Shown: one piece after another, positions 358-23,647 of the stretch
Numbering within the stretch: the stretch's first letter is position 1
Layout of the letters: every line of letters begins with the position of its first letter
Virus record (IMG/VR): IMGVR_UViG_3300031972_001000
Location: 1 to 28,341 of that record
Source of the DNA: a virus
Lineage: Duplodnaviria; Caudoviricetes
Strand: one strand, 5' to 3'
DNA: 28,341 bases
Made by a program: the position numbers and the translations under genes
The notes under the pieces: model-generated
What the model was told of the DNA's origin: nothing
The model's input: only the letters and a program-made list of their open reading frames with translations
Databases searched by the model: none

Positions 358-785
358 GACACCGATGGGTCGTCGGGACTCCGCGTGACCACGTACAGGA
401 TGCGCTCACGGAAGATGTCGACGAACACCCAGAAGCCGTGCAGAATGCACAGCAGCGCGTAGGCCGGCGCGACCTGCCAGCCCCACGCCTGACCCGCGTT
501 GATGACGCCGGCGATGATGCCGTACGTCAGTCCGGCGTAGGCCGCGGCGCTGGCCATGTGACACGCGATCGCCGTCGGCCACCAACTGCGGCGGTTCGCG
601 ACGAACCCGACGATGGCCGGGATGATCAGCCACAGCGCCCACACCTGGAATGGCAGCGCGGCCTCGACGGCGTTGAGCACCTTGGTCACACCGTGCGGGC
701 GCAGCAGGTACTCGATGCCCTGCGCCGCGGAGACGACGAACCACACGTCACCGAGTGGGACTCGTGACGTAGCGAGATTGCGCAC
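354..785 (-). CDS. Multi-pass (about 4 TM) membrane protein, holin-like or lysis accessory
   Basis: ORF 354..851. Preferred start is GTG at 785 with GGAGG at 792-796. Four hydrophobic segments; follows the holin. Confidence 0.7.
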   Translation of the reverse strand: MRNLATSRVPLGDVWFVVSAAQGIEYLLRPHGVTKVLNAVEAALPFQVWALWLIIPAIVGFVANRRSWWPTAIACHMASAAAYAGLTYGIIAGVINAGQAWGWQVAPAYALLCILHGFWVFVDIFRERILYVVTRSPDDPSVS

Positions 786-880
786 TCTGGTCCTCCAGTG
801 GATGGGGATTGCCAGGTGCAAGGTGACCCTGTTCATCCCGGTATTGATCACGCGGCTGTGGTCTCAACCGTTGAGGTAGG

Positions 881-1150
881 TCAGGGCTTCGCTGGCTCGA
901 CCGCCTTGGTCAGCGACGCGGTGCCGCGGTACCCGCGCCGGTAGCTGAGCAGTGAGGTGATCAGCGACGCGACGGCCATGCCGCCAGCGACATTGAGCCC
1001 GTCGAGCCACTGGATCGTGGTCAGGGCGATCTGGCCGCCTTCGGCCGCGGTGAAGATCGCCGATCCGACGACGAAGCCTTGCAGCGCGGACTTGCCGGCA
1101 CGCTCAGCGGTGTCCTGGATGAACGGGTTGTTGTGTAGGAAGTTGTCCAC
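881..1150 (-). CDS. Holin (r1t-like, 2 TM)
   Basis: GTG at 1150 preceded by AAGGAG. DTAERAGKSALQG...AGGMAVASLITSL pattern typical of actinophage r1t-type holins; directly after LysB. Confidence 0.8.
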   Translation of the reverse strand: MDNFLHNNPFIQDTAERAGKSALQGFVVGSAIFTAAEGGQIALTTIQWLDGLNVAGGMAVASLITSLLSYRRGYRGTASLTKAVEPAKP

Positions 1151-1167
1151 TGGGGTGCTCCTTTTTC

Positions 1168-2139
1168 TCAGATTGCGCGTAGGAAGTCGACCGCCGGGAA
1201 GCGGTTGTAGGCGTGCTGCTCGAGGTTCACGAAGAACCGGATCGCCTCGATGCCCGCGGTGGCGGCCGCGATGGTCTCCTGCAGCGGACGGGCGGCCCAC
1301 TCCAGCAGCTGCGCCACGAGCGAGTCCTCGCCGCCGAAGAAGTCGGTCGCCGAGAAGATGAGCCGCTGCACCATGACCTTCCACTCGTCGGCCTCGCGGT
1401 CACGAATGCAGGCGTACATGTCGCCGGCGTGGGCGTAGTTGCGGACCTCGAACGGCGCGTCGTCGAGGCCCTCCAGCCGGTCGGCCATGATGCCGAACGT
1501 GTCGGGGCCGGCCACTTGGTACTTCCAGTGGTCGAAGTGCGCGATTCCCTGCTGGCGCATCGGGTTTCCCCAGAACACCACCTTGCGGACGTCGGGCAGG
1601 CGGTGATGCAGCCGGCCGGCCGGATTCATGATGTCGTGCTTGAGCACCTGGCCGATGACGACCGCGCCCTGCGAGTATCCGGCGAGCGCGATCGGGCCGG
1701 GCTTGGAGTCGATCTGCAGCACCGTCTCGGCGCGGCCCTTGTCGATCGACGGCTTCATGGGGAACGGCACTGCCGGGTAGTTGCCGATGGGCTGCCAGCG
1801 GTAGCGGTCGAGCACATCGCGGGCAGTGTCGGCGGGCAGGCCGGGCCCGAGTGGGTCTGCCATGCCGGTGCCGTGAACGGTGAACAGCCAGGGCATCTCG
1901 CGAGCGTCGGGCACGGGTGAGATGCCGAGCACGGTCAGGTCATGGTCGGACACCTCGCCGTCGTCGACCTGGAACGTGCGCCGCTCATACTCACGCTGCC
2001 ACGCCACCGCGCGGGGCCCGAACTCGTCGGTGTCGCCGGGTAGCGGGCCATGGATGCGCGCATACCCGGCGAACCGGACAGCCATGACCTGGCGCCACTT
2101 TCGGACGGTGGGGTTGCGGTCGTGCAGCCGTAGCGGCAT
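1168..2139 (-). CDS. lysB: Lysin B (mycolylarabinogalactan esterase, cutinase-like)
   Basis: N-terminal PG-binding-like segment (DTDEFGPRAVAWQREYE), HGTG, GYSQG nucleophile motif, GNP motif, GDMY acid, C-terminal His. Coupled to LysA (TGATG). Confidence 0.92.
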   Translation of the reverse strand: MPLRLHDRNPTVRKWRQVMAVRFAGYARIHGPLPGDTDEFGPRAVAWQREYERRTFQVDDGEVSDHDLTVLGISPVPDAREMPWLFTVHGTGMADPLGPGLPADTARDVLDRYRWQPIGNYPAVPFPMKPSIDKGRAETVLQIDSKPGPIALAGYSQGAVVIGQVLKHDIMNPAGRLHHRLPDVRKVVFWGNPMRQQGIAHFDHWKYQVAGPDTFGIMADRLEGLDDAPFEVRNYAHAGDMYACIRDREADEWKVMVQRLIFSATDFFGGEDSLVAQLLEWAARPLQETIAAATAGIEAIRFFVNLEQHAYNRFPAVDFLRAI

Positions 2140-3125
2140 CAGCGCGCCTCGGCGATCTCGGTCAGCGCCTTACCCCACGCCGCGATCGAGTCACGCTGCG
2201 TCAGCGCCACGCCGCCGGGGCCATTGGCCGGCCAATCCTTGTGGCCCGGGCCCTGCTGCTCGGCGATGTACTCCAGCAGTTCGCGATCAGTCGCCGACTG
2301 TGGCCACGGCTTCGGTGGCACCGCAATGACGTTCCCGCCGTCGGGCTTGAACCCGGCGGCCTTGAGCTTCTCCAGCGTGATCGGGCCCACGATGCCGTCG
2401 GCGTCGATCCCGGCGCCGCGCTGGAATGCCCGCACGGCCTGCTCGGTCAGCGGGCCGAAGTCGCCGTCGACGTCTAGGCCGGCGCCGCGGGTGTTGAGGA
2501 ACGCCTGCAGTCGCTTGACGTGCTCGCCATTGTGGCCGAGCTCGGCCCAGTACGACGGCTGCACGACGACGGGCGGGATCGTGCCGCCGCCGGTCCCGCC
2601 GCGTCGGAAGGTCGAGAACCCGTCAGCGCGGATCTTGCGGCGGATGAAGTCGTTGCAGCGGGCGATGTCCTGGTAGGTGCCGTAGCCCATCTGGAAGTGC
2701 ATGGGGTCGATCGGGTTGTCCCAGTGCTGGGCGAAGAACACCATGCCCTCGTACCAGCCGGCCCCGGGCCCGCGGCTGTTCTGCTTGGTGCCGAACAGTT
2801 CCTCGAGAACGCGGCGCTCGTTGGCGTCCCAGCCGGCCCAGTTGACGCGGAACGGGTGGTCGTTCCAGTTGAGATCCATCGCGGTGCCGCCGAGGTGGTT
2901 CGACGTCGGCACGCTGTTGGTGCCGGTCCAGCCGCCCTCGTCGCCGCCACTCGATCCGGCGCGTCCGTTGTTGAGCGACTCGACGAACTGGTGGATGTCA
3001 GCCGCGGCAGCCTTGAGGATGACGTTCGGGATGCCGCGCTGCAGCGGGATCACGATGCTGGTGCCAGGAATGGGGTTGCGGTCGAGCATGTCGGGTCCGC
3101 ACGCGGGCCAACCGTTTTCGGTCAT
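2139..3125 (-). CDS. lysA: Lysin A (M15-type Zn peptidase + peptidoglycan-binding domain + C-terminal domain)
   Basis: TENGWP start, SNHLGGTAMDLNW and DPMHFQ motifs, PG-binding motif (LQAFL...VDGDFGPLTEQAVRAFQ...DGIVGP), RBS GAAAGGA. Confidence 0.92.
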   Translation of the reverse strand: MTENGWPACGPDMLDRNPIPGTSIVIPLQRGIPNVILKAAAADIHQFVESLNNGRAGSSGGDEGGWTGTNSVPTSNHLGGTAMDLNWNDHPFRVNWAGWDANERRVLEELFGTKQNSRGPGAGWYEGMVFFAQHWDNPIDPMHFQMGYGTYQDIARCNDFIRRKIRADGFSTFRRGGTGGGTIPPVVVQPSYWAELGHNGEHVKRLQAFLNTRGAGLDVDGDFGPLTEQAVRAFQRGAGIDADGIVGPITLEKLKAAGFKPDGGNVIAVPPKPWPQSATDRELLEYIAEQQGPGHKDWPANGPGGVALTQRDSIAAWGKALTEIAEAR

Positions 3126-3155
3126 GGGGGCTGTTCCTTTCGGGCATGGCAGCGA

Positions 3156-3180
3156 CCCTGCTGCGGGGAAGTCAGCAGGG
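3156..3180 (-). promoter_or_regulatory. Stem-loop in the lysA leader
   Basis: CCCTGCTG (3156-3163) / CAGCAGGG (3173-3180) 8-bp inverted repeat about 30 nt upstream of the lysA start. No U-tract. Confidence 0.35.
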
Positions 3181-3194
3181 GCGAAGTCGGGAGG

Positions 3195-3374
3195 TCAGAT
3201 AAAGCAGCGCAACGCGCCCCAGCGATGCGCCCACACAGTCGAGCGGCGCTGCGCCGGGCGTCCGCGGTGCTCGTCGACCGGGCGACCGTCGAGAGGACAC
3301 CTATCCTCGGGATGGCCCTCGTTGAAGTCCGGGTCCGAGGTGCCGAAGCGGTCGAGGTGGTCGAACAGGGTCAT
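3195..3374 (-). CDS. Small hypothetical protein (59 aa)
   Basis: Below ORF-track cutoff. ATG overlaps the previous stop (ATGA 3371-3374); MTLFDHLDRFGTSDPDFNEGHPEDRCPLDGRP...WGALRCFI*; fills the gap before lysA. Confidence 0.55.
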   Translation of the reverse strand: MTLFDHLDRFGTSDPDFNEGHPEDRCPLDGRPVDEHRGRPAQRRSTVWAHRWGALRCFI

Positions 3375-4186
3375 CCGAACGGCCTGAACGCTGCAGGCGC
3401 CGGCATCAGCACGAACCCTCGGCGGGCGCCGTCGTAGCCGTAGTCAGTGCCCCAGATGCGGTTGATCGTGGTGCTCGGCGCGGGGAACGGCCGGTCGTAG
3501 GCCGCCTCGATCGCCGGGCGCTGGCGGGCATCTTCGTCGGCCTTGCGCTGCAGGCTCCACCACTTGCTCTCGATGCCGGGCAGCGGGTAGGTCGGCGCGA
3601 GCACGTAGGTCACGTTGGGGTTCTCGGGGTCGACCCAGGCGGTGTTGCGGGGGTCGCCGATGCGCACGTTGGTGTAGTCCGAGTGCACGGCCAGCGACAC
3701 GTTCGACACCGCGGCGCGCACCGACCGGTCAGCCGGGTAGTCCTCCGGGGCGCCGTACTGGCGGGCCACGTCCCACACCCGGTAGGCGCAGTCGTCCGGC
3801 ACGCCGGTGTAGCTGTAACCGCTGACGATGCCCGAGCGTTCGACCGTCGCCGCGCCCCCGTACTTGCGCTCGGGGTGGCCAGTGAGCACGAACACGCACC
3901 GTTCGGGCGGGCACGCGGCGAGCACCTCGGCGTCGTCCATGAGGCTGCCGGCGATGCGCGCGCCGAGCGACTGGCCGAGGACGGCGACCTGGCCGCGGGA
4001 CTCCAGCAGCGCGGCCTTGAGCTTGGCCCGCCCGTCGTCGAAGTTCGATTGCGCGACGAACTTGTTGCTGTAGACGATGTCTCGACGCTGATACGGCGGC
4101 CGGAATAGCTCGCCGCCGAGGTGGTCGTTGTCCAGGCGCGGCTTCGGGCTGGCACCGGCCAGGCAGAAGGTGGTGATCGTAGCCAC
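3371..4186 (-). CDS. PE-PPE-domain / cutinase-like alpha/beta hydrolase
   Basis: GQSLG nucleophile elbow, FVLTGHPERKYGG, DVARQY..EDYP, VHSDY motifs; GGAGG RBS before GTG. Confidence 0.8.
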   Translation of the reverse strand: MATITTFCLAGASPKPRLDNDHLGGELFRPPYQRRDIVYSNKFVAQSNFDDGRAKLKAALLESRGQVAVLGQSLGARIAGSLMDDAEVLAACPPERCVFVLTGHPERKYGGAATVERSGIVSGYSYTGVPDDCAYRVWDVARQYGAPEDYPADRSVRAAVSNVSLAVHSDYTNVRIGDPRNTAWVDPENPNVTYVLAPTYPLPGIESKWWSLQRKADEDARQRPAIEAAYDRPFPAPSTTINRIWGTDYGYDGARRGFVLMPAPAAFRPFG

Positions 4187-4205
4187 GGGGTCACCTCCTG
4201 GTCGG

Positions 4206-4211
4206 TATGCT
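4206..4211 (+). promoter_or_regulatory. Candidate SigA-type -10 (TATGCT) for a leaderless lipoprotein transcript
   Basis: TANNNT hexamer ending 8 nt before ATG 4220. No SD and no recognisable -35. Confidence 0.45.
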
Positions 4212-4219
4212 CGGCCCCC

Positions 4220-5011
4220 ATGTGGGGGAAGTTGCTAGCCGTCGTATTTGTTGTCGCTGCTCTGGCAGGGTGTGACCGGACGCCGCCGGCCTACGAATCG
4301 CGCTACACCCCACCCCCGCCGACGACCCCGGCGTGGCTGCCCGCTGAACATCCCCCGTTCGACCCCGGCACCATCGCCGCGGCCCTGCAATCGCAGCAGC
4401 CCTACGCGATCGCTGTGCTCGGCGACTCCACTGGCAACGCGCCCGACGAATGGGTACACCGCGTCGCGCAACGCATCGCCGAGGACTACGGCCGCGAAGT
4501 CACGGTGAACGGCTGGAACGGGGAAACGAACCGGTACGAATACGTCACCGTCTACGGCTCCGGCTCGCCCGTCACGGTGTGGAACGCTTCAGCCCCAGGG
4601 GAGCCGGCCCAGTATTCGATCGAGTGGTATCCGCAGATGGTGCCCCAACCGGTGAACCTGACCTTCATCAACCACTCGCATAACCGGACCTCAGACGTGC
4701 TGCTCGGCGCCGCCAGCTTGATCGACACCTCGTACGCCAATACCCTGCCCGGAGGCGGTGTGGTGGTGATCCTGCAGAACCCGCGTATCGACGCACCCGC
4801 CCACGAAGGGCAGAAGATGATCGCCCGGCTCCGCGAAATCTACAGCGATCCCCGGTACGGCGCGGTCACCGTGGATGTGTTCTCGGCGTTCACCGACACT
4901 GGCAACGTCCCGGCTTTGCTTGGCACCGATGGCGCGCACCCCAACGAGCAAGGTTCGCAACTGTGGGCCGACACCGTGTGGTCGACCCTCGGACTGGGTC
5001 AGGCGACCTGA
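4220..5011 (+). CDS. Lipoprotein SGNH/GDSL hydrolase (moron-like, opposite strand)
   Basis: MWGKLLAVVFVVAALAGC signal with LAGC lipobox (Cys18), Pro-rich linker, GDST block I, NASAPG block II, SHN block III, DGAHP block V; 263 aa. Confidence 0.88.
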   Translation: MWGKLLAVVFVVAALAGCDRTPPAYESRYTPPPPTTPAWLPAEHPPFDPGTIAAALQSQQPYAIAVLGDSTGNAPDEWVHRVAQRIAEDYGREVTVNGWNGETNRYEYVTVYGSGSPVTVWNASAPGEPAQYSIEWYPQMVPQPVNLTFINHSHNRTSDVLLGAASLIDTSYANTLPGGGVVVILQNPRIDAPAHEGQKMIARLREIYSDPRYGAVTVDVFSAFTDTGNVPALLGTDGAHPNEQGSQLWADTVWSTLGLGQAT

Positions 5012-6465
5012 TCCCAGGCGTCGGTGATGGCCTTCAGCCACACCTCTTCGCCCGTCTCACCGGAACCATCCGCCGCGGTCGGATGAACGCCGTCGCTGGC
5101 CTCCACCAGGTCAGCCACACCGGCAGGCCAGTCGAGGAACGCCTTGTAGGTGTCGATCACCACCAGCCCGGCCCGCGCGGCGTAGCCCATCAGCAGTTTC
5201 CGCCTGCGCGCGTGAGCCTGAATGTAGTCAGCGCCGAACGGGGCGATCTGCGGGTTCTGCGTCAGGATCACCTGCTGACAGCCCGGCACCCGCGCGTCGA
5301 TCGCATCCGAGAACGCCTTGCGCGCCGTCAGATACGCCGCACCCACATCGGTCGTGGCGTCGTTGTGCGAGCACGACTGGAACACCACCGACCCCGCATA
5401 AGGGTGGATCATCTTCGGCAATCGGCCGCTGTCGGCGAGGTAGGTGAGATTCGCGCCCGGTTTCGACCCGTTCAGCACATACAGTGTCGGGGAGCCGCCG
5501 AACGTGCCCGCAATGTACGAACCGGAAACCCCACGCGGCGTCCACGAGTCAATCGGCTGCGGGTTGACGATCTTCCCGTCGATGCCGTCGCGGATCTGCA
5601 CCTCGTAGATACGGCCCATCAGCATCTCGGCGTTCAGGCCGCGCCCACCGATCTCGTAATCCGTGGCCGAAGCGTCGAAGATGCTTGTCGTGGAGCCGGG
5701 AACGACGCTGTTGGTGATCGTCGTCCACGTCACACCATCAGTGGACTTGTAGAACGTGGCGGTGTATCCGCCTGAACCGTTGTCCACATCGAGGGTGACG
5801 CGCACCCACGCCTCGGTTCCATCAGCAATGGCGGCCCCGGTGGATGATCGGGAGATGTTCGTGGTGCCGTCCGTCGTCCAGAGGAACGACAGCGCACCCG
5901 ACGAGTTGACCTGGAAGATGAAGCCGCGCTGACCGGCGGCGCCGTAATGGGCGACGAGATCCTGCGACGACGCCGGTGTCCAGTCGTCCAACCGGACACG
6001 CACGCGGATGTCGATGTCGCCGGAGATGTGCGGAAACGACGCGTAGGGCAGATAGAAGGTGCGGGAGTTGTTGGTGAACAACGCGTAACGCTCCCCGCTG
6101 GCGCCGGCTTGCAGCACCGACCACGCGCCGTACGCCTGCGTCGCGTCATCCCACAGCTTGTACTTGACGTGCGCGTCGGGATGACGGTCAGCCAGCCACT
6201 CCGACAATAGGTACACCCACTCATCGGGGGCGTTAGCCGTCGAGTCGCCCGGCACCTGCACCGCGGTCGAGTTGCCGCCCGCAGCCAGCGCAGCATCGAC
6301 AGCGGAGAAGATCCCGTCAGCGAGTCGCGGGCGCCGCGCGAAACCAGCCAATACGCGAGAGTCGGCAACGGGCTCGGCCACGACGCCGATTTCTGTGCGC
6401 AACTTCTCAGGAACTTTCGTACCTGCTGACTGCGCGTCGTCGAAGGGTACCAGCACATCAGCCAC
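4999..6465 (-). CDS. SGNH/GDSL hydrolase with inserted lectin (LamG/ConA-like) domain, probable tail-associated protein
   Basis: GDST, NGSKPG, SHND and DGVHP blocks, interrupted by a roughly 200-aa beta-rich domain; located at the end of the minor tail cluster. Confidence 0.8.
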   Translation of the reverse strand: MADVLVPFDDAQSAGTKVPEKLRTEIGVVAEPVADSRVLAGFARRPRLADGIFSAVDAALAAGGNSTAVQVPGDSTANAPDEWVYLLSEWLADRHPDAHVKYKLWDDATQAYGAWSVLQAGASGERYALFTNNSRTFYLPYASFPHISGDIDIRVRVRLDDWTPASSQDLVAHYGAAGQRGFIFQVNSSGALSFLWTTDGTTNISRSSTGAAIADGTEAWVRVTLDVDNGSGGYTATFYKSTDGVTWTTITNSVVPGSTTSIFDASATDYEIGGRGLNAEMLMGRIYEVQIRDGIDGKIVNPQPIDSWTPRGVSGSYIAGTFGGSPTLYVLNGSKPGANLTYLADSGRLPKMIHPYAGSVVFQSCSHNDATTDVGAAYLTARKAFSDAIDARVPGCQQVILTQNPQIAPFGADYIQAHARRRKLLMGYAARAGLVVIDTYKAFLDWPAGVADLVEASDGVHPTAADGSGETGEEVWLKAITDAWDQVA

Positions 6466-6468
6466 GGC

Positions 6469-6933
6469 TTATGCTCCTGTCATTTCATAGAATCCGTCTG
6501 CATTCTTCACAAACACTGCGCCCGGCCCCATTACATAAAAACCGTCTGCGTTCTTGGCCAGCGTCACAGTCCAATCACTGGAATGCTCCTCTACGTACTG
6601 AGATACGGCAGCAGCGAGAAGCTCCTGCGCCGTATCCGGCGAGTAGGCGACACCAGCCTCGATGACAGACCACAGGCCGCTGTCCTCAACCGGAATCGTG
6701 ACGAGATACCGCTTGCCGTCGGGGTTCCCGATGTAGACCTTCTTGCCCGCTTCGGCGCGAATCGTCAGCACGCCAGCCTTGGGCCACCACCGGGTCGCCT
6801 CCTCGCCGGGCGTGATGACACCGCCGCCGCCGCCGCCATCCTGGTACGTCGCCGCCTGCGTTGTCCATGGCCGCGGATCAGGGCGGCCCGATTCGTCGCG
6901 GACCAGATCGCCAGTGATCGTCACGAGCGCCAT
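6469..6933 (-). CDS. Minor tail-region protein
   Basis: 154 aa, coupled to the previous gene (TAATG-type/1-nt overlap at 6933); C-terminal KNADGFY-x-M repeat. Confidence 0.7.
   Translation of the reverse strand: MALVTITGDLVRDESGRPDPRPWTTQAATYQDGGGGGGVITPGEEATRWWPKAGVLTIRAEAGKKVYIGNPDGKRYLVTIPVEDSGLWSVIEAGVAYSPDTAQELLAAAVSQYVEEHSSDWTVTLAKNADGFYVMGPGAVFVKNADGFYEMTGA
6488..6555 (-). repeat. Degenerate direct repeat encoding KNADGFY-x-M twice
   Basis: tagaatccgtctgcattctt (6488-6507) versus taaaaaccgtctgcgttctt (6536-6555); 48-nt period. Confidence 0.75.
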
Positions 6934-8048
6934 CAGTTACTCACCCCTGCGATGTAGAACGTGCGGTCATGGCGTCGGCCCTTCTTTGTCGACACGCGCA
7001 CCTGCACACGGGCCTGCGAGAACATGCTGCCGCCGGACAGCCACACCTGGGTCATGTTGTCCTCGAACGCTTCCGACACCTTCTGCAGCGTGCCGCTCAC
7101 CGTGTGCTCGACCGACACGATCTCGTCGTCGGGGGCCATGTGGTTGTGCCAGTGCAGCGTGTAGTCGAGGGTGTCGTCGGGGTCTTTCTCCCAGATCGGC
7201 ATGAGCACGCCGTCGGCGGTCACCGCAAAGTTCTCGAGGAACTCGCGCGGGTCCGCGGTGCCGAGCTTCGGGATGACGTGCTCGCGGTCGGGGTGCGGCG
7301 TCGCGAGCCGGTAGATGTCCGCGCCGACCCGCTGCCGCGGCGACAGGTTCGTGCGCGCCGCGCCACCCGTGTACACCGGGGTGGGCGGCAGGTTCAGCGC
7401 GAAGCCCGCCCAGTTCGCCGTCGACGCGTTGTGCGTGGCTGTGCACGTCACCGAGGTATCGCCGCGGGCCTCGCCGAGGATCAGGTGCCCACCGCCGGCG
7501 ACGATCGCGCTGGCGACCCGCTCGTGGTTGTAGCCGCTGATGCCGCGCAGCTTGCCCACCATGTGCGCCGAGATCACCCGGTGCGCAGGATTGACCGACG
7601 ACACCACCACCGAGCTCGACGCGGCCGAACCCGACGCCACGGCCGTCACCACGTTGTCGCCGATGTTGTCCAGGTCCAGCGCCTCGACCTGCGACCACAC
7701 CCCGCCGACCAGCAGCAGGTTGCGTGTGTTGATCAGCGCGTTGAACGGCACACCCGAGAACGTCGCAGCCAGGTCGTCGGACTCGGGATTCTCGAAGATG
7801 AAGCCGCGCAGCACGCTGTCGTTGTCGGTGAAGTAGATCGGGTCGAACAGCGACACCCCCGACACCCCGCCGAGCGTGACGTCGAACGTGGCCTCGTCGA
7901 TGTCCTGCTCGGCGGTGTAGCCCAGCGCCGCGATGCCGTAGGTGTTGACCGCATCCGGCACCGTCAGTGCGGTGTCGATGTCGCCGCTGGTGACCGTCGA
8001 CAGGATGGCGGCCGCCCGCTGCGCTGCGGCGATCCGAGTCACGGGCAT
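6933..8048 (-). CDS. Minor tail protein with C-terminal fibre-adaptor-like domain
   Basis: 371 aa, beta-rich; C-terminal KDPDDTLDYTLHW...TQVWLSGG...RVSTKKGRRHDRTF. Confidence 0.7.
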   Translation of the reverse strand: MPVTRIAAAQRAAAILSTVTSGDIDTALTVPDAVNTYGIAALGYTAEQDIDEATFDVTLGGVSGVSLFDPIYFTDNDSVLRGFIFENPESDDLAATFSGVPFNALINTRNLLLVGGVWSQVEALDLDNIGDNVVTAVASGSAASSSVVVSSVNPAHRVISAHMVGKLRGISGYNHERVASAIVAGGGHLILGEARGDTSVTCTATHNASTANWAGFALNLPPTPVYTGGAARTNLSPRQRVGADIYRLATPHPDREHVIPKLGTADPREFLENFAVTADGVLMPIWEKDPDDTLDYTLHWHNHMAPDDEIVSVEHTVSGTLQKVSEAFEDNMTQVWLSGGSMFSQARVQVRVSTKKGRRHDRTFYIAGVSN

Positions 8049-8049
8049 A

Positions 8050-8448
8050 TCAGACCCAGCCGTCCAGTTGCAGCGTCACACCGTCGGAGATGATCAGCAG
8101 GTCACCCTCGACGACGGGGATGGGCTTCGTGGCCACGAGGTTCCATACGAAGTCGCCACCCGACAGCGCCGTCCACAGGCTGAAGTGCGACACCGACAGG
8201 TCCGCGATCTCGCCGAGGGTGTATTCCATCGGGGCGCCGATCGTCTGCACGAACGCGTTGTCGTCGACCTCGGAGAAGCTGGGCACCTGGCGGTCGGTGT
8301 CGGCGATGACGTTCGCAGTGCCGTCGCTGCCGGGCAGTCCGTTGTGCGCCTGCATGTAGAGGCCGTTGACGACGAACGGCTTGCCGTTGAACACAGCGCC
8401 CATCAGTCCCTTGACCGTCCACAGAGACGGGCCGATGCTGTTGGCCAT
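8050..8448 (-). CDS. Minor tail / tail-tip protein
   Basis: 132 aa, RBS GAAAGGA; H.G.PG.DGTAN and SHFSLWTA..GG.F pattern common in actinophage tail-tip proteins. Confidence 0.7.
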   Translation of the reverse strand: MANSIGPSLWTVKGLMGAVFNGKPFVVNGLYMQAHNGLPGSDGTANVIADTDRQVPSFSEVDDNAFVQTIGAPMEYTLGEIADLSVSHFSLWTALSGGDFVWNLVATKPIPVVEGDLLIISDGVTLQLDGWV

Positions 8449-8460
8449 GGGTGTCCTTTC

Positions 8461-8676
8461 CTAGTCCCGAAACTCGTCGAGTCGTTCAAACAGCGGGGCC
8501 ATCTCAGCCACCGCGGCATCCCAGTCGGGCCACTGCGCAACCCACTCGGGCGAGGCATCGAGCAGGTACGTATCCGGCTGGTCGCGCTCGTCGGATCCGT
8601 AGAACGTGCCGTCTGGACGCATGAACCAGTACCGGCCACCCGCGGCGCATTCGGCCATCTGCTCTGGCGTCATCAC
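8461..8676 (-). CDS. Small hypothetical protein
   Basis: 71 aa, ATGA overlap with upstream gene, fills the gap in the operon. Confidence 0.65.
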   Translation of the reverse strand: MMTPEQMAECAAGGRYWFMRPDGTFYGSDERDQPDTYLLDASPEWVAQWPDWDAAVAEMAPLFERLDEFRD

Positions 8677-9659
8677 GGCTCATCCCCCTCGGCGGCCACA
8701 CGCAGGCCGGCAAACGGGATGAAGCGGTTCTCCCGACCGAGGCCGGCGAAGCTGATCGACGATGGGATGCCCTGCGAGTGATCTGCCGCGGTGAAGCACC
8801 ATGCGTCGATCAGGGCGGCCGAGCTGCGAGCGATGTTCACTGCCGGTGCCGCGCCGACGTAGCGCGCCGTCTGTAGGCCGCCGGGGGCCGTCTGCTGGAA
8901 CGCGGCAAACAGCAGCTGTCCGGGCGTGCAGGACTGCGGCGTGCCGATCGTCATATAGATGTAGTCGGGGTCAGCCACGGACGCGTAGGTGTCCTTGACG
9001 TTGCCTGAGCCCCAGGCTTTTTCGATGTTGCCGGTGTCGGGGTTGTAAACGCACAGCGCGACCTCGTAGTAGTCGATCGAGAAGATCGAGGTGTCCGCGC
9101 CGCCCACCCAGGAGATGCCCTCGACTGCGCCCTTGCGGTCGGCGATGATCGGGACGTAGTAGATGGTCCCCTCGGTCTCGCCGATCACGACGTCGGGTCG
9201 GAATACCGGCAGCACCGAGTGGTGGTACACGCCCGAGTAGACGAACTCGACGGGGTCGAGCAGGTTGCGCGCCTTCGGTGGTGTCGACGAGCCGCCGATG
9301 GTCGGGATGGTCAACTGCGAGCGAGGTACCGACACCATCTGCTCTTCGTCGCCGACGTAGGACAGCGTGGTGTTCATCGACGCCTGTACGTCCTGCAGCT
9401 CGACGATGGCCTCGGTGTTCAGGGTGAGGTTCTGCTCGACGTTGGTCGACCATCCTGACAGCCAGTCCCACGGGTCGAAGTCGGAGCCGGTGTCGACGCC
9501 GCCCATTGCAACGGCGATGTTCGCCGCGTTGCCCCGGTTGATCTCGGCCTGTCGGTCGAGCAGCTCTTTCTCAGTGAGCCGCTTCGGCGTTGTCGGCGTG
9601 CCACCGGGTATCTGTCCGACGCGCTCGAAGTACCGCTCCCAACCGGGCCCTTCACTCAC
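8673..9659 (-). CDS. Minor tail protein
   Basis: 328 aa, GTGA overlap; coiled-coil segment followed by a beta-rich domain; position in tail cluster. Confidence 0.75.
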   Translation of the reverse strand: MSEGPGWERYFERVGQIPGGTPTTPKRLTEKELLDRQAEINRGNAANIAVAMGGVDTGSDFDPWDWLSGWSTNVEQNLTLNTEAIVELQDVQASMNTTLSYVGDEEQMVSVPRSQLTIPTIGGSSTPPKARNLLDPVEFVYSGVYHHSVLPVFRPDVVIGETEGTIYYVPIIADRKGAVEGISWVGGADTSIFSIDYYEVALCVYNPDTGNIEKAWGSGNVKDTYASVADPDYIYMTIGTPQSCTPGQLLFAAFQQTAPGGLQTARYVGAAPAVNIARSSAALIDAWCFTAADHSQGIPSSISFAGLGRENRFIPFAGLRVAAEGDEP

Positions 9660-10525
9660 GCAGAAACCACCAAGCCCGAGAAATGCATGTAGTCGGAGAG
9701 CGCCGTGTAGGAGGCTGAGCCGTCGACCCGCTCGGTGTTGATGAACACGACCGCGCCGTTTCCTGCGGTCACCTTGCCTACCGTGTCGGCCGAACCTGCG
9801 GCGGGCCCGGGCGAGAAGTTCAGCCGCTCTTTCGCCACGCCACCGATGCCGCGACAGATGCCGATGACTGGGCCGTCGATCGCATTCAGGTGCGCCACCA
9901 GATTCACCTGAATGTTGCTGCTAGTGGCCTCAAACCGGCACTCGCCCTGCGGGATGACGCGGTAGTCGAAGTTGTAGACACCGGCGTCGATGTTGATCTG
10001 GGCCACCGTGATAGGGCTGCCCACGCTGCCGCTCGGCGCGTCACTCAAGCTCGACGGCCAGTGCAACCGGCCCACCTTCGGCCACGCCAGCTCGAACTCG
10101 GTGGCACCCGGTGCGACGACGAGCGCCTGCCCCGCGACGGGCGTCTCGGCGTAGTCCTCCGGGGTGATCAGCGCGGCGCCGGGCGCACCGTCCGCGCCCA
10201 CCCGCACGCCCAGGTCGACCGCCACTAGTGGCCCGGCTGAGTCGGTTGCCGGGGACAGCTCGCGCAGTTTGAACGTGACCGCGGTGGGGCTATCGGCGGG
10301 CAGTGCCTCGACATTGCCCTCGACGAATGTGGTCGAGTAGGCCCTGGGGCCCTGAGCAAGCGCGCCCCATCCCGCCTTGCCGTGCGGCGCCGCGACGAGC
10401 AGATAGGCGCCCGAATCCTGCGTGTCGACAGCGTTCTTGAGCATGTGGAACTCGGTCATCACGAACTTGAGCCACTCGCGCCCGTAGGCGTCGGTGTACT
10501 CGGTCGCGAATACCTGCTTCTGCAT
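9656..10525 (-). CDS. Minor tail protein
   Basis: Preferred start ATG 10525 (MQKQVFAT) with AAGGAG RBS; short Gly-X-Y stretch; position in tail cluster. Confidence 0.75.
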   Translation of the reverse strand: MQKQVFATEYTDAYGREWLKFVMTEFHMLKNAVDTQDSGAYLLVAAPHGKAGWGALAQGPRAYSTTFVEGNVEALPADSPTAVTFKLRELSPATDSAGPLVAVDLGVRVGADGAPGAALITPEDYAETPVAGQALVVAPGATEFELAWPKVGRLHWPSSLSDAPSGSVGSPITVAQINIDAGVYNFDYRVIPQGECRFEATSSNIQVNLVAHLNAIDGPVIGICRGIGGVAKERLNFSPGPAAGSADTVGKVTAGNGAVVFINTERVDGSASYTALSDYMHFSGLVVSA

Positions 10526-10533
10526 GAGTCTCC

Positions 10534-11082
10534 TTAGCTCTGGGGCGCGAGCGTCCACACGTTGAACGCCGCCCATAGATCGCTGATGTTTCGCCGCAGC
10601 ATCACGCTCGAATGTTCAAGCGGCTTACCGTCACCCATCTGCACAGTCAGCTCGCGCGTGCGGCGGTCGGAGCTGAACGAGACGAGCTCGATGTGGTCAG
10701 TGAACAGCTTCGTGCGCGCCGCGTAGACGAGCGTCATGAGCGCGCCGGGGAAGATATCTCGGCCGAGCCGGTAGGGCCCGTTCTGGCCGCGGAAAGACGC
10801 GATGGCAGTCGTGTATCCCCTTGACGCCCAGAGCACTTGGATGAACTGGAACAACGCCTCTAAGTTGTACGGAGACGAGTTGGTGGCGGTGAATACCTCG
10901 ATGGCCGGGTGGTAGGGGCCGACGTCGTTGCGGCGGTCGTAGTGCTGGATCAGCTGGAACGCGAAGAACGCATCGTTGAGGAACCCGTCGAGCAGGTTCG
11001 ACGGCACGCCGGTAAACCCGATGATGATCATGGCCGCGTCGATCACGAACGACAGCCACGCGTTGATCAGGTCGTTGAGCCA
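10534..11082 (-). CDS. Minor tail (hub / Gp37-like) protein, C-terminal part in the +1 frame
   Basis: WLNDLINAWLS...FLNDAFFAFQ...PYRLGRDIFPG...LTVQMGD. No credible independent start or RBS; continues the upstream ORF if 11083-11134 is skipped. Confidence 0.75.
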   Translation of the reverse strand, partial: WLNDLINAWLSFVIDAAMIIIGFTGVPSNLLDGFLNDAFFAFQLIQHYDRRNDVGPYHPAIEVFTATNSSPYNLEALFQFIQVLWASRGYTTAIASFRGQNGPYRLGRDIFPGALMTLVYAARTKLFTDHIELVSFSSDRRTRELTVQMGDGKPLEHSSVMLRRNISDLWAAFNVWTLAPQS

Positions 11083-11092
11083 CTTGAGTTGT

Positions 11093-11140
11093 CCGAAGGT
11101 CGGTGCCCCACCAGTTTCCCGGTGGGGCACCGACCTTCGG
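11093..11140. repeat. Perfect 20-bp inverted repeat with 8-nt loop at the frame break of the hub gene
   Basis: CCGAAGGTCGGTGCCCCACC (11093-11112) - AGTTTCCC - GGTGGGGCACCGACCTTCGG (11121-11140). Confidence 0.97.
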
Positions 11141-12315
11141 CGACTTGCCGCCTATGATGTGTTGCCACCCCAGGGGGGTGCTGTGCTTGATCTTGCACGA
11201 CATGATCGCCGACCGGTCTCGTACCACCTCCCCGTCGGCAACGATGTCATCGGGGGTGATCAGCACCGCATACGGCGGCACGAAATCCAGACCGAGCGCG
11301 GGCGCGATGTGCAGACCCTCGGGCGCGTACTCGCCGTTCGGGTTAAGCAGCGGGTCGAGCGTCTTGCCCAGCAGCGAGCCTTGCGCATCCACCACGGCGC
11401 GCAGGCCCGAGTCGAGGATGTTCTTGAACGGGCCCTCGATCTGGCTGCGGTCCTTGACCGTCATGACGTAGGTGGGCACCTGCAGGTTCGCCCACTTATC
11501 CGGCTGCGGCATCCCCGGCCGCCACAACGTGACTCGCACGTCCACGCCGTACGCGGGGGTGATCTCGCGAATCAGATCGCCGACCGTGGACATGCGCACC
11601 GTCTTGATGAACTGCGGCGAGGAGTCCCGCAGCAGGCCGGTGCGCACCACATACAGCGGCGTGTGCAGCGTCTGCGGGCCATCGTTCTCGATGCGCTGCA
11701 GCATCGTGCCGAACCAGGTCCGCACATCGGGGTTGAGCGAGAGCGCGTTGTTGAAGAACTCGTTCATCCCGGTCTGGATGCGGAACGACGACTGTGCCGC
11801 AGCGGCTTCCAGCACCGTGCACATCGGGCCGGCAAAGGTGGCGTGCGAGAAGGGCTGCGTCTGGATCGGCAGATACCACGACGGCCAGATCGGGAGGTAG
11901 TTCAGGATGTCGTAGATGCCGACGAGCTCCGAGGTGTAAACCCACGCACCGTCTTTGAGTTCCTCGGTGTGGTGCTTGACGTAGAACGCCTCGGAGACAC
12001 CCTCGGTCTCGATGATGACGCCGACCATGGTGTTGACGCAGTCGGCGAGGTAAGGATTGAGCCAGTGCCCGCCCTTGAGCGTGAGCGTGGCCTGCGGAGC
12101 GTTGTTGCGCGGGATCGTGCCCGCGACCTTCATGTAGTCGGCGGCGACACCGATGGGGTTCCAGAACTTGTCGCAGACCGTGACGGTGTAGTCGGTGTCC
12201 TGGTTCTCGAACGCCTCGGCCAGGCGGTCGGACGCTTCGGCTGCGCGCCAGGCGATGTCGGATTCGAGATCCTCGGCCCAGCGGTCGAGCAGTTCGTCGA
12301 CCTGCGCGGAGCTGA

Positions 12316-12319
<4 letters not shown>
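11135..12319 (-). CDS. Minor tail (hub / Gp37-like) protein, N-terminal 395 codons
   Basis: VTVCDKFWNPIG, IWPSWYLPIQTQP, WRPGMPQP, IIGGKSPK. The frame formally continues to 10697, but as an Arg/Pro-rich, off-frame-looking tail. Confidence 0.8.
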
Positions 12320-17822
<5,503 letters not shown>

Positions 17823-18257
17823 CTACATCCATCCGGCGTCGGCCAGTTCGGTTTCGGTCTGTGCGGCCAGCTCGGCGTCGCGGTCCTCGGCCTCGGCGCG
17901 CAGCCGCAGGTCGACCGGGTCGGCAAGCTGGTAGTCGCGCGGGTCGAACCGGACGTCGTTCTCCTCGGTGCTGTGCACCGCCCAGTAGCCCGAGCGCAAC
18001 CGAAGGATCTCGTTGTGAATCTCGTACTGCACCAACTGATCAGGCGTCAGCCGGCCACCTCGCCGCGCCGTCTTGTACGCGCTGGTGTCGCGAAGTTTGT
18101 CGAGCACCGCCAGCAGGCGGCGACTCGACAGGTAGGGGGCGTTGGTGTCGGGGTTGATCGTCAGCCGGTGCCAGAGACCGATGTCGAGGCCCTTGTCGAG
18201 CAGATCGCTCTCGATCTCCTCGGGCCACAGCAGCCAGCGCGCGAGTGCGTCAGCTAC
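17823..18257 (-). CDS. Tail assembly chaperone, frameshift extension (gpT-like)
   Basis: Frame open from just after TGA at 18297-18299 down to 17823: VADALARWLLWPEEIESDL...LSSRRLLAVLDKL...; lies between gpG and tape measure. Confidence 0.8.
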   Translation of the reverse strand, partial: VADALARWLLWPEEIESDLLDKGLDIGLWHRLTINPDTNAPYLSSRRLLAVLDKLRDTSAYKTARRGGRLTPDQLVQYEIHNEILRLRSGYWAVHSTEENDVRFDPRDYQLADPVDLRLRAEAEDRDAELAAQTETELADAGWM

Positions 18258-18747
18258 TTTTCGAGTCGCGCCGGCGACGCTCCTCCATCTGCAGATTCAT
18301 GACCGACCACTGCACGTCGATCTGCCCCGGCACCCCGCCGGCGGCCAGGAACCGCTCATACGTCGGGGGTAGCGCGCCGCTCGCGAAGTACGCATCGCGT
18401 TCTGCCACACCGTCATCAGAGTCAGCCATCAGCGCGATGCACAGCAGCTCGTCCTCGTTGATCAGCTTGCCCTTGTACTCGGGCGGCCAGACGCGCTGCT
18501 TGGACCTCTTGTTCGTCACCGGGTGGGTGACGGTCTCCTGATCCAGCCCCTTGGCCATGAACCTCATGTGCTCGAGGAACCGGCGCTTCATGACCGGCGG
18601 CAGGAAGTGCGGGTTCGGCAACGTCCACTTCTGACCGTCGCCGAGGTCGAACTCGTAACCGGCGAACACCGACAGGAACTCGGCGGCCTGCTGCATCGCC
18701 TTCTCGGGCGAGACCGGGCCGCGCTCGGTGTTGTCGTCGTCGCTCAT
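18250..18747 (-). CDS. Tail assembly chaperone (gpG-like)
   Basis: 165 aa after major tail; GGAGG RBS; ends ERRRRDSKSS. Confidence 0.85.
   Translation of the reverse strand: MSDDDNTERGPVSPEKAMQQAAEFLSVFAGYEFDLGDGQKWTLPNPHFLPPVMKRRFLEHMRFMAKGLDQETVTHPVTNKRSKQRVWPPEYKGKLINEDELLCIALMADSDDGVAERDAYFASGALPPTYERFLAAGGVPGQIDVQWSVMNLQMEERRRRDSKSS
18257..18265 (-). other. Candidate programmed frameshift site C_TCG_AAA_AG (+1 or -2)
   Basis: gpT frame is +1 relative to gpG; a -1 slip gives AAG TAG (stop). Confidence 0.65.
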
Positions 18748-18807
18748 GGGCTGTTTCCTCCAGGGCTGTTGTTGGGCTGCTTGGTGATTCGACCCGCCGT
18801 GTGGCGA

Positions 18808-18851
18808 GCCCAGCCCGGTGCGCGAACAGCCCGAACGCGCACCGGGCGGGC
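18808..18851 (-). promoter_or_regulatory. GC-rich stem-loop after the major tail gene
   Basis: GCCCGGTGCGCG (18813-18824) / CGCGCACCGGGC (18836-18847), extendable by 4 bp past a bulge. No U-tract. Confidence 0.7.
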
Positions 18852-18858
18852 GACTTGG

Positions 18859-19974
18859 TTACGTCTCGGTGATCGTGACGCTGTTCGAGTTCGGCGTGGT
18901 CGCCACCGCACCGTTGGTGCCCTTGACGTTGGCGCGCAACAGGGATGCGCCCGCGGTCAGGCCGGTCACGGTGAGGGTGACCGTGGAACCGGCCACTACC
19001 ACACTCTCGGGCTCGATGAGCGAACCCCAGGTGACACCCGCGTCGGTGGACTGCTGCACACCGGCAGGAGCCTCCGAGTAGTCCCACGGGTCGCCGGGGC
19101 CGGTCGGCACCGGGAACGCCAGGGTGGCGGTGTTGTCGTCGGTGGCCGTTGCGGTCGGCGCGGTCGCCGACAGTTCCGGCACACCACCGAACGCGGTCCA
19201 GCCGTCCCCGCCCCACCAGGTGTAGACCAGCACCGGCTGGTACTCGCCGTCCTGGAATGCCATGAACCGGCCGTCATCGACGGGCAGGTAGGTGAGCTTG
19301 GCGCCCTCGGAGTCCTTCTTGTCCTGCTTCGAGGAGCCGATGTCGTCGAGGCGGGCCAGGCACACGCCAGTCACCGACCAGACGGGCTTACCGTCCCAGA
19401 ACCGCTCACGCAGGAACAGGAACCGGCGGCCCGGGTTGGAACCGTTGAGCAGGCGCCCGTAGCCGGCGTTCGACCAGCCGGGATCCTCGACGAGGCTGTT
19501 GCCGTTCGCATCGAACAGCGGCAGGTTGTTGCGCAGCCGCTGATACACCGGGTCGGCGGTGTCGACCATGGTGAAGCTGAACGGCTCCACCTCCTCGGTC
19601 AACAGCGTGTCGTAGGGGCTGTTGGACTGCTCGATCATGAAGCGGTCCTGGGTGATCTTGGGCTCCATCGACGGGCCGTCACCCTCCTTGAACGCGCCCG
19701 TGCCGTAGAAGCCCTCGTTGGCCTCGGTGTTGGTGACGTAGATGCCGCCGACCTTGTGGCGGGCGAACAGGTCTCGGCGCAGCTTCCCGTCCTGGGCGAA
19801 CGGCGACCAGCGCACCGAGCCGTCGGAGTTGTGCGGGCTGATGTCGGTGGCCACACCGCGGGCATCGCTGACGGCGGCGGCCTTCGCATTGCCACGGCGC
19901 AGGAACTCGGGTGCACGGTCGTTGAGATGCGCGGCGTTCCACGAGCCGCCGGTCTCCGGTCGCAAATCAGGCAT
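18859..19974 (-). CDS. Major tail protein with C-terminal Ig/FN3-like domain
   Basis: Preferred start ATG 19974 with GGAAGGA RBS; WSPFAQDGKLRRDLF motif; Thr/Val-rich C-terminal beta domain. Confidence 0.88.
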   Translation of the reverse strand: MPDLRPETGGSWNAAHLNDRAPEFLRRGNAKAAAVSDARGVATDISPHNSDGSVRWSPFAQDGKLRRDLFARHKVGGIYVTNTEANEGFYGTGAFKEGDGPSMEPKITQDRFMIEQSNSPYDTLLTEEVEPFSFTMVDTADPVYQRLRNNLPLFDANGNSLVEDPGWSNAGYGRLLNGSNPGRRFLFLRERFWDGKPVWSVTGVCLARLDDIGSSKQDKKDSEGAKLTYLPVDDGRFMAFQDGEYQPVLVYTWWGGDGWTAFGGVPELSATAPTATATDDNTATLAFPVPTGPGDPWDYSEAPAGVQQSTDAGVTWGSLIEPESVVVAGSTVTLTVTGLTAGASLLRANVKGTNGAVATTPNSNSVTITET

Positions 19975-20067
19975 AGCTGACGTTTCCTTCCAGGATGGAT
20001 GAACGCCGAATGGCATCCGGCGGAATGGGGTTGGGCTGTTGGTGGTGCGGCAGAAGCCGCGACCCGA

Positions 20068-20505
20068 CTAGGTAGCCGGGACGAACGAGAGGCCGAGTCG
20101 ATACTCGGACACGAAACGCGTCACGACCGACTCGGCGGAATACGGTTCTTCATGGGCCGCGGCGATGATCTCGACCCAGTCGCAGTGCACGACACGGCCA
20201 TCGGAGAGCGTCACACCCCAGCCGGGATACTCGAGCAGCACGCGCATGCGGGCATCAGTCCCGGCCGCGGCGGTCGCCGCCTCGCCATAGGATCCGCCGA
20301 AGGTGTGCACATGCATCACCGGCTCATCGGAGTACAGCGTCTGCGGGCCCGTCACCCGGCGCACCGTGCGGTACGGCTTCGGCAGGTTGGTCGCCCACAT
20401 CTTGGAGCCGATCGACCCGGGGCCGGCTGTGATCGGTAGCAGCCACGAGCGCAGGAACACCTCGGCGTCGACAGCTGTCAGGTCGGGGGTGAGCGGCGCG
20501 CTCAC
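20068..20505 (-). CDS. Tail terminator
   Basis: 145 aa; PYRTVRRVTG...VHTF motif; immediately before major tail. Confidence 0.75.
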   Translation of the reverse strand: MSAPLTPDLTAVDAEVFLRSWLLPITAGPGSIGSKMWATNLPKPYRTVRRVTGPQTLYSDEPVMHVHTFGGSYGEAATAAAGTDARMRVLLEYPGWGVTLSDGRVVHCDWVEIIAAAHEEPYSAESVVTRFVSEYRLGLSFVPAT

Positions 20506-20810
20506 TGGTCACCCTCGGTCTGCTCGAGATGGTTCTGCGTCTTGGCGCGCACCGGGTTCGGCTCCTGATCCTCGGTGCCGAACTCCACCCAGTGGCTCTT
20601 GTGGTCAGAGAACTCGATCTCGACGCCGCTGTTCCCGACGCGGCCGACGCGGATCCCGTCGCGGTACTCGCCCTCGTCGACCGGGGCGATCGACTTCGCG
20701 TACTGCACACCCTGACGCGCGACAGCGAGCTTGTAGGCGATCACCTCGTCGTCATTCTCCAGCGCGTCGTCGATGTCAGCCTGGGGGATTAGGTCGCGAA
20801 GGTCGGCCAT
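20502..20810 (-). CDS. HK97 gp10-like head-tail protein
   Basis: AKSIAPVDEGEYRDGI...WVEFGT motif. Confidence 0.8.
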   Translation of the reverse strand: MADLRDLIPQADIDDALENDDEVIAYKLAVARQGVQYAKSIAPVDEGEYRDGIRVGRVGNSGVEIEFSDHKSHWVEFGTEDQEPNPVRAKTQNHLEQTEGDQ

Positions 20811-21235
20811 CAGCCCTGTTCCCTCTCGCAGATGCAGAACACGTGATCGTCGCGCCCGCGGAGGTCTTGCTCCAGCACGGCGTCACCACGCATCGCGTAC
20901 CGCAGTCCGTTGTGATGCAGCCACCCGTTGGCGTTGATGGCCACCTTGCCGTCGTCGTCCTCACCCGGGTTGTCGATGAAGAATGCGATTGGCGCCGGCT
21001 CGCCGTCGTCGTCCACCGCGGGCACTGAGCCGTCGATGATCGGCAGCATGGCCCAGGCGATCTCGGAGGTTGTTGTGGTGAGGTTCTGCGACTCGGTAGG
21101 CGTCTGAATCTCGAAACAGGCGTTGTCGACCCAGGCCGTCACGTTGTCGGTGATCGGCTCGCCCCAGTCGTTGTGGCCGGTGACGACCTCGCGCTCGATG
21201 CCGACGCGCTGGTTGCCGATTGGGTAGACGCCCAT
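20810..21235 (-). CDS. Head-to-tail stopper
   Basis: 141 aa; DWGEPI and Y.M.GD...DHV motifs; gene order. Confidence 0.7.
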   Translation of the reverse strand: MGVYPIGNQRVGIEREVVTGHNDWGEPITDNVTAWVDNACFEIQTPTESQNLTTTTSEIAWAMLPIIDGSVPAVDDDGEPAPIAFFIDNPGEDDDGKVAINANGWLHHNGLRYAMRGDAVLEQDLRGRDDHVFCICEREQG

Positions 21236-21238
21236 CAG

Positions 21239-21610
21239 TCAGTAATCGAACTTCTTGAACCGGCCACGCGGCGCCGCGGTGGCGCTCAGTCCGAGCATGC
21301 GCCGATGTCGCGGGGTGATCAGATCGTCGACCGCCTTGGCCATGTCGTCGAACGTCCCAGCCTCCTGGCGCCGGCTGGTGATGTTCTGGAACGACGAGAG
21401 CACACTGAGGTGGCCATACATCGCAGCGTCGCGCACGACCTCGAATACGACCTGCTTGGCCGCATCTTCGTTCGCGTCCGGCGCCAGGACGCGCACCCGA
21501 TCAGAGGCCACCTGCAGTAGGCGGGTGGCCGTCGTTGTCTCGCCATCGGATAGCGTTCCGCCCTGGTACTCGGTGGTGAACTGCCCGATAGTCAGGAACG
21601 GGTCGGCCAT
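21239..21610 (-). CDS. Head-to-tail adaptor
   Basis: 123 aa; ATRLLQVASDRVR...AKQVVFEVVR; gene order. Confidence 0.7.
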   Translation of the reverse strand: MADPFLTIGQFTTEYQGGTLSDGETTTATRLLQVASDRVRVLAPDANEDAAKQVVFEVVRDAAMYGHLSVLSSFQNITSRRQEAGTFDDMAKAVDDLITPRHRRMLGLSATAAPRGRFKKFDY

Positions 21611-23245: not shown

Positions 23246-23283
23246 TTGCGTTGTCTCGCTTTCTCTTTACCGGGCCGCCCGCG

Positions 23284-23646: not shown

Positions 23647-23647
23647 C

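Follow-up and report, generated by a model that had tools for sequence, protein, structure and literature searches.

Hairpin cassettes in baseplate-hub and terminase genes of mycobacteriophage-like phages as candidate elements for programmed ribosomal bypassing without a stop codon

The baseplate-hub gene of a mycobacteriophage-like virus is interrupted by a 52-nt hairpin cassette, one of 39 distinct cassettes found in hub and terminase genes. Judged from sequence comparison and folding, the cassette is probably a programmed ribosomal bypass in which a common sense codon, rather than a stop, follows the take-off codon, and a stop-independent hop between matched codons, as proposed by a sequence-only reading of this DNA, fits the family better than any rival. 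With less assurance, we lean towards a broader interpretation, in which the element is a mobile, portable bypass cassette whose single long hairpin alone would drive a hop of ~50 bases from almost any codon. Such a cassette would need no stop, rare codon or nascent-peptide signal, would spread among essential phage assembly genes, and would join introns and inteins as a third type of insert that is silent at the protein level, one that has gone unnoticed in 13 cultured mycobacteriophages.

The interrupted hub gene

The window, here the whole 28,341-nt stretch analysed, carries a siphovirus late operon from terminase to lysis genes on its minus strand (1..28217). The upstream half of its baseplate-hub gene (minor tail, PHROG 110; 395 codons, 11135..12319, minus strand) ends in GGKSPK, and the downstream half (182 codons and a stop, 10534..11082, minus strand) begins at TGG (11082). 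Between them lies the cassette, a coding gap of 52 nt (11083..11134, minus strand), whose first codon is the common sense codon GTC. The AAG lysine codon just ahead of the gap (11135..11137, minus strand), paired at the base of a stem, is the take-off codon predicted from sequence and fold, and the AAG that ends the gap (11083..11085, minus strand) is the predicted landing codon, after which coding would resume at TGG. Once the gap is removed, the 395 upstream and 182 downstream codons (11082-10537) give 577 aa; recomputing coordinates and frames reproduced the earlier description of a 52-nt insert at 11134-11083 between AAG codons, with halves summing to that length. Because the PHROG 110 matches of the two halves abut, the upstream half ending at profile position 397 and the downstream half beginning at 398, the gap is the exact point of interruption. 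The motif had been expected to be uninterrupted in hub relatives, and it is: among the tblastn matches listed, the halves join without a gap in Maddy2, MooMoo and prophiGD91-2. The downstream half is ~80% identical to intact relatives.

If no hop took place, frame 0 would run on for 145 codons (10697..11134, minus strand), as had been counted before, to an aberrant product of 540 aa. The resume frame, too, is open through the 52-nt gap in the window. The assertion that the downstream half has no usable start goes slightly too far: a resume-frame GTG lies inside the stem at 11130 and GTG or ATG codons occur at downstream codons 13, 18 and 26, and none of these candidate starts has a Shine–Dalgarno-like run in the 16 nt upstream examined. 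Codon usage in the window, per 1000 codons, is 28.9 for GTC, 48.2 for GCC, 4.1 for CTA and 0 for TTA.

The hairpin (11093..11140, minus strand) comprises a 5' arm (11140-11119) that takes in six upstream coding bases, a GAAA loop (11118-11115) and a 3' arm (11114-11093). The 20-bp stem of the sequence-only reading is present as 20 Watson–Crick pairs and is extended to 22 bp by one G·U pair and one G-C pair closing the loop. The family core, GTGCCCC (11130-11124) and GGGGCAC (11109-11103), lies within the arms. An A/C-rich tail of 7 nt (11086..11092, minus strand) separates the stem from the landing AAG, which begins 7 nt 3' of the stem, the distance given previously. The predicted folding energy is −63.1 kcal/mol (z −7.4; 0 of 200 shuffles equally good), and, among 60-nt folds of the window's coding strand, the hairpin ranks first in stability (−52.8; runner-up −44.7). 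The second-strongest hairpin of the window, at 18790-18860, sits just past the major tail gene in a terminator-like position. A tail-assembly chaperone pair occupies two frames at 18250-18107 and fits the usual programmed frameshift.

The insert is real DNA, neither an assembly error nor a one-off. It is bridged unchanged in contigs of X14 and X16, runs not flagged as source, and in those of X2 (depth 349; X2 may be the source), whereas contigs of X15 and X17 break inside the hairpin. No insert-less joint was seen among contigs of eight runs, although contigs drop rare alleles. The window sequence was found nearly whole in 17 marine or estuary runs from several studies between 2016 and 2025 (13 flagged as possible sources), and the identical insert is present in several marine studies. 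An RNA-library contig, X18 (11060-11234), keeps the gap, at a depth of 3.3 and with 23 nt on one side, and may derive from DNA; the coverage of RNA runs X19 and X20 lies outside the junction. Neither a second copy of the hub gene or cassette in the window nor an endonuclease among the 33 window ORFs scanned was seen.

A predicted structure of an intact relative (mean pLDDT 64) matched best to the Bxb1 tail-tip chain (E 2e-18) and the Douge baseplate chain (E 8e-17), followed by Tal, gp27 and VgrG folds at low TM-scores (~0.37); by this model, the gene product is predicted to be a baseplate hub. A PDB sequence search with both halves gave no match. According to the available text of PMC13033339, the Douge hub is a trimer whose core beta-fold is built from residues of both chain ends, the C-terminal part giving half of it. 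Since the Douge core uses both ends of the chain, both halves are presumably needed in the window phage. With moderate confidence, the break falls at the start of a predicted helix and not in a long linker.

A family of cassettes in hub and terminase genes

When 50,697 phage records were searched with tblastn, 810 matched the upstream half and 796 the downstream half, with the best 40 of each listed. Among these listed matches, Che9c, Sbash and Mycofy1 have a 55-nt gap one codon further on, with an insert that shares the core GTGCCCC...GGGGCAC with the window. Scanning viral sequences for this core pattern gave 102 matches, comprising 24 hub, 2 hub-like and 10 terminase loci; the other 66 lie in neither gene and were left out of the family. 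Of the 71 matches in genomes and 52 in metagenomes, 5 and 13 were family loci (66 and 39 others left out). In 401 genomes of one actinobacterial family, 22 pattern matches included three new cassettes, in a distant hub subfamily, and 18 that look intergenic, judged by open-frame lengths alone. Patterns with 5–12 or 19–28 inner bases hit 55 and 39 viral loci, all outside the hub and terminase genes; the GTGCCCC spacing across the family is partly imposed by the search patterns used. After duplicate removal, 61 loci represent 36 distinct cassettes, and the three later ones bring the total to 39. These are kin, with about eight independent positions and 22 cassettes from one site. A blastn match in Sparky/Farewell proved to be an intact major-tail gene and was dropped as chance, and Rfam returned no match to E 1 for the window and the five loci scanned.

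Thirteen cultured mycobacteriophages (20 records) carry the cassette, namely Che9c, Sbash, Mycofy1, ThetaBob, Cornie, Renaud18, Spartacus, LunaBlu, Guppsters, Sabbb, Pollywog, MadMen and Kersh; it is absent from TChen, LunaStella, Saroj and Ritam007. The carrier annotations examined show two genes or one read-through gene, and a recoding event in none. Seven positions in hub and terminase genes were checked in DNA and an eighth, after GFMN, was seen in protein alone. In the hub gene, cassettes follow K, W or L/V of GGKSPKWL, TAWL, or PSN, or occupy an early site at profile position 169|170; in the terminase gene, the position is AEGL|N. Relatives thus bear out the suggestion that inserts would recur at the same junction: covarying cassettes sit there and nearby, with a codon match that follows wobble rules. 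Of 120 homologues, 112 have an unbroken hub junction motif (the rest being two cassettes, two inteins and four not captured), and 64 of 80 terminase relatives are intact across both terminase sites. A tree of downstream halves from 28 carriers and 31 intact relatives contains eight carrier/intact label changes, seven of them forced by strong branches, which shows repeated gain or loss; its rows were not randomly chosen and yield no rates.

Database proteins P0119 and P0124-P0130, one of them named Mycolicibacterium vanbaalenii, are frame-0 read-throughs of further cassettes and have the signature V-G/C-A-P after the junction, a fast route to further carriers. In one carrier, L368, decay, an assembly error or a second insert may account for a downstream frame that breaks after 59 codons; in every other carrier whose flank is long enough, the downstream frame reaches its natural end.

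A related hairpin cassette of 50-51 nt, with core GCTTTCGCCCC, occupies a second terminase site after RRLW (loci L492, L494, L516, L549-L556 and L154); at least nine variants of it exist, counted outside the 39. Its last triplet is always an Arg codon (CGC, CGA or AGA), unmatched to TGG at the homology junction. L154 has cassettes at both terminase sites.

Conserved phase, codon match and stem

Gap lengths were set from a profile of intact relatives, blind to codon match, except for L178, L226 and L310, where they were judged by eye and then borne out by PHROG 110 positions that abut. They range from 46 to 58 nt across the 39 cassettes (≤56 nt in 36), with 55 nt in Che9c, 53 in Spartacus and 54 in Pollywog. 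The gap starts on a codon boundary at all eight positions (seven DNA-checked, one in protein) and falls in all three frames (23/11/5), five cassettes being in frame; a stop closes the resume frame within the gap in 29 of 39. The codon entering the A site after take-off is GTC in 28, GCT in 8 and GCC in 3, so that the stop or hungry codon of established bypass cases is missing in 39/39.

The last triplet of the gap agrees with the take-off codon at position 1 in 36, at position 2 in 37 and at position 3 in 11 of the 39 cassettes, and at both of the first two positions in 36; in registers shifted by 3–15 nt, the triplet match drops to 0–6 of 36. Pairs of take-off and landing codons include TGG>TGA, TGG>TGC, TTG>TTA, CTG>CTA and GTT>GTC, and at five cassette positions the later change in the match sits at position 3. 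At the SPxW site, the landing TG is invariant (22/22), whereas the seven preceding tail columns carry 0.8–1.7 bits. Premature landing sites are scarce (2 of 348 tail dinucleotides). The three later cassettes served as an out-of-sample test, in which GTT>GTC and GTC>GTC fit and GTC>TTC (L570) does not. The hub PSN|L site has a mismatch, AAT>GGC (2/39), where the Asn anticodon could pair only via two G·U pairs, and TGG>TGA (20/36) implies a C·A mismatch at the wobble position. We note that the third-position change is nearly always G to A, giving the stop TGA or the rare TTA and CTA; such triplets would trap ribosomes arriving by ordinary decoding.

The take-off codon lies within the stem in all cassettes, with its positions 3, 2 and 1 paired in 36, 36 and 35 of 36, and the 3' arm varies with the insertion site. 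Outer stem pairs are kept in 447 of 448 cases, and in 191 of 192 variable columns against a shuffle maximum of 155, the shuffles ignoring kinship. Pairing on the mRNA strand includes 26 G·U and 0 A·C pairs, the sense fold is more stable than the antisense fold in 39/39, and the loops are mostly GNRA and UUCG. This G·U-type pairing and these loops therefore indicate selection acting on RNA. A MITE- or REP-like DNA palindrome was considered and rejected, as the pairing is not strand-symmetric and there is one cassette copy in the window and in each of three host genomes. A purine run precedes the landing codon in 21 of 36, mostly as part of the stem extension; a mini Shine–Dalgarno ~6 nt ahead of landing, of the kind in T4 gene 60, is absent in the window.

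Between close carrier pairs, the downstream half has a median dN/dS of 0.04 and a maximum of 0.16 (30 pairs, >85% identity and dS over 0.05); the median of 0.40 over 303 distant pairs is uninformative, with misaligned subfamilies above 1. These values place the downstream halves under strong selection.

Proposed bypass mechanism

With the take-off codon (AAG in the window) in the P site, the GCCCC/GGGGC pairs would lie ~10–14 nt from its first base, near the mRNA entrance, where they may stall the ribosome in place of a stop codon. After the stall, the peptidyl-tRNA would let go of the take-off codon, and the stem, take-off codon included, would refold behind the ribosome, driving it forward and barring its return; refolding as the driver follows a model from T4 gene 60 (PMC5009743; bioRxiv 2024.12.09.627546). 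The tRNA would then re-pair 6–14 nt beyond the stem at a triplet matched in positions 1–2, and coding would resume after landing to give the normal 577-aa hub, while non-hopping ribosomes would make the 540-aa junk product. Bypassing of this kind would explain the fixed phase, the codon match, the latitude at the third position, the few premature landing sites and the gap lengths. Sliding in T4 gene 60 is processive up to 56 nt (PMC11194080).

The unmatched sites stand as counter-evidence, namely AAT>GGC in two variants, GTC>TTC in one, and TGG against CGC, CGA or AGA in the related terminase cassette. Either landing there can be set by stem distance, or the junction differs, or something other than tRNA re-pairing is at work. 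The codon match could also have been seeded, without any tRNA, by a target duplication of 3 bp, although the later changes at five positions fall on codon position 3.

Alternative explanations

Excision had been named beforehand as an alternative to a ribosomal hop, and its RNA form is retained here as a rival, though an improbable one: a micro-intron cut from the mRNA by a phage or host enzyme, with the stem marking the 5' cut. [quoted passage not shown] Precise splicing, however, would allow any phase, whereas a codon boundary is found at 8/8 positions, and no base is conserved at the 3' end of the gap. The group I pattern, with a U closing the exon and a G closing the intron, is likewise missing: the last base of the gap is A, G or C, and most exon ends are G. 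A cassette of ~50 nt is far below the size of a group I or II core, the Rfam search was negative, and X18 keeps the gap without a joint, a weak point given its low depth and possible DNA origin. Excision at the DNA level, or skipping by RNA polymerase, such that a minority of templates or transcripts is intact, is very unlikely. Hairpins between short direct repeats are prone to deletion, and in the tree intact TChen stands beside the carriers ThetaBob and Renaud18. Against this, the 26 G·U pairs are confined to the mRNA strand, the insert persists in lab-passaged phages, the contigs of eight runs, in which rare alleles would drop out, show no insert-less joint, and slippage between copies where TGG and TGA agree at two bases would bring back a stop.

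Separate translation of the halves by restart after a stop, followed by assembly of a two-chain hub, is unlikely. It draws on the GenBank entries of LunaBlu, Guppsters and Sabbb, which record two genes where a stop and an ATG overlap, on split phage enzymes known to reassemble (Manning and Atkins, bioRxiv 10.1101/2022.08.31.505936), and on the downstream selection, which fits separate chains as well as fused ones; yet just 3 of 32 hub variants have, downstream of the gap, a stop close to a restart codon, and none is present in the window, Che9c and Sbash, where frame 0 runs 145–167 more codons. Two chains would also leave the matched triplet, fixed phase, stem and several neighbouring sites unexplained, and the break at a predicted helix start, away from any long linker, speaks against them with moderate confidence. 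A +1 slip, raised at the outset, or stop read-through within the gap would give a hub with ~17 extra residues, in keeping with the open resume frame of the window and the five in-frame gaps. Since the gaps fall in three frames and 29 close the resume frame, frameshifting cannot serve the family, and the junction motif is contiguous in most homologues; we regard this route as highly improbable. Least credible is that a small palindromic element inactivated the gene in a defective phage, another of the initial alternatives. Chromosomal hairpins of similar core, located between genes in some actinobacteria (18 of 401 genomes; control, 4), and the broken frame of L368 point that way, but the 13 cultured carriers, the downstream dN/dS of 0.04, the other downstream frames that reach their natural end and the identical insert across several marine studies point away from it, and the plaque-forming carriers largely refute it.

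Discussion

As far as the available text of PMC5009743 and PMC10732093 goes, programmed bypassing is established for T4 gene 60 and yeast mitochondrial byps only, with first experimental support for phiHau3 (PMC10732093), and each of the three requires a codon that is slow in the A site. Like T4 gene 60 and its MobA-linked homologues, the cassette has a gap of ~50 nt with the take-off codon on the 5' side of a stem, a landing codon that is matched or wobble-matched, a tail free of premature landing sites, a take-off site that can shift by a codon, and a site under homing-element pressure (bioRxiv 10.1101/2022.08.31.505936; PMC11194080; PMC5009743). Unlike T4 gene 60, it has no stop or rare codon after take-off, no mini Shine–Dalgarno in the window and no sequence likeness. 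The T4 gap combines a short stem with an AU-rich spacer in a topoisomerase gene accompanied by a MobA-type endonuclease, whereas the cassette gap is mostly one 18–22-bp G+C stem in hub and terminase genes, with no endonuclease seen beside it. A fixed nascent-peptide signal is unlikely, because the host codons are many (K, W, L, V, N) and the two gene families involved are unrelated.

The byps of Magnusiomyces capitatus mitochondria are likewise small inserts (27–55 nt) at many sites, context-independent and with an imperfect or relaxed codon match, but they need an unused A-site codon and relaxed mitochondrial decoding, in contrast to a common codon and bacterial ribosomes here (PMC5009743; Manning and Atkins preprint). 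The terminase gene of the Streptomyces phage phiHau3 is, similarly, an actinophage virion-assembly gene whose junction tolerates no added residues; its gaps of 7–10 nt are triggered by a rare UUA, whereas the cassette has ~50 nt, a long hairpin and an A site without UUA (PMC10732093). The group I intron in BAKA minor tail gene 34 shares gene and motif with the cassette and leaves the protein unchanged (PMC3706429), but is a 265-nt spliced ribozyme; L006 and L010 use protein splicing, and the cassette contains neither core. By sequence, the cassette appears to work like T4 gene 60 and byps, yet we do not place it among them because its A-site codon differs in kind and no sequence is shared. No description of these cassettes was found in the literature covered, in which subscription journals are thinly represented and from which supplements are absent; where PMC4351075 (Corndog tape measure start) and PMC12646305 (Bxb1 primase) speak of ribosome bypassing in their available text, other genes are meant, and, judged by their listing, two papers name Mycofy1 no more than in passing.

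Three kinds of protein-silent insert, cassette, intein and group I intron, lie within four codons of the hub motif. The BAKA intron (L254:1687-1951, after VGG), shown to be spliced (PMC3706429), is three codons upstream of the window junction, and the short inteins of the uncultured phages L006 and L010 (after GGK, before locus position 2501) are two codons upstream. The cassette probably persists since it leaves the protein unchanged while altering the DNA of a conserved motif. Given the nearby intron and inteins, and the shielding from MobA that the T4 cassette gives its site (Manning and Atkins, bioRxiv 10.1101/2022.08.31.505936), our leading guess is that a homing target is being protected, with down-tuning of the three-copy hub protein as an alternative reason. 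The former proposal that the cassette controls hub level found no support; protection of a homing hot spot or selfish persistence fits equally. Single-copy GTGCCCC/GGGGCAC hairpins between genes of actinobacterial chromosomes (L557-L578, L260-L330) are a possible source of the cassette core, as a lead only.

Take-off geometry, landing rules and gap limits can be read from the 39 natural variants, and the system is ready for M. smegmatis, as the gaps of Che9c, Spartacus and Pollywog span three frames and close relatives are gap-less. If the bypass reading is true, a bacterial ribosome can be launched from a common sense codon by nothing more than an mRNA hairpin, annotations as two genes or a read-through gene would need correction in at least 13 phage genomes, and the cassette would be relevant to the recoding or synthesis of carrier phages.
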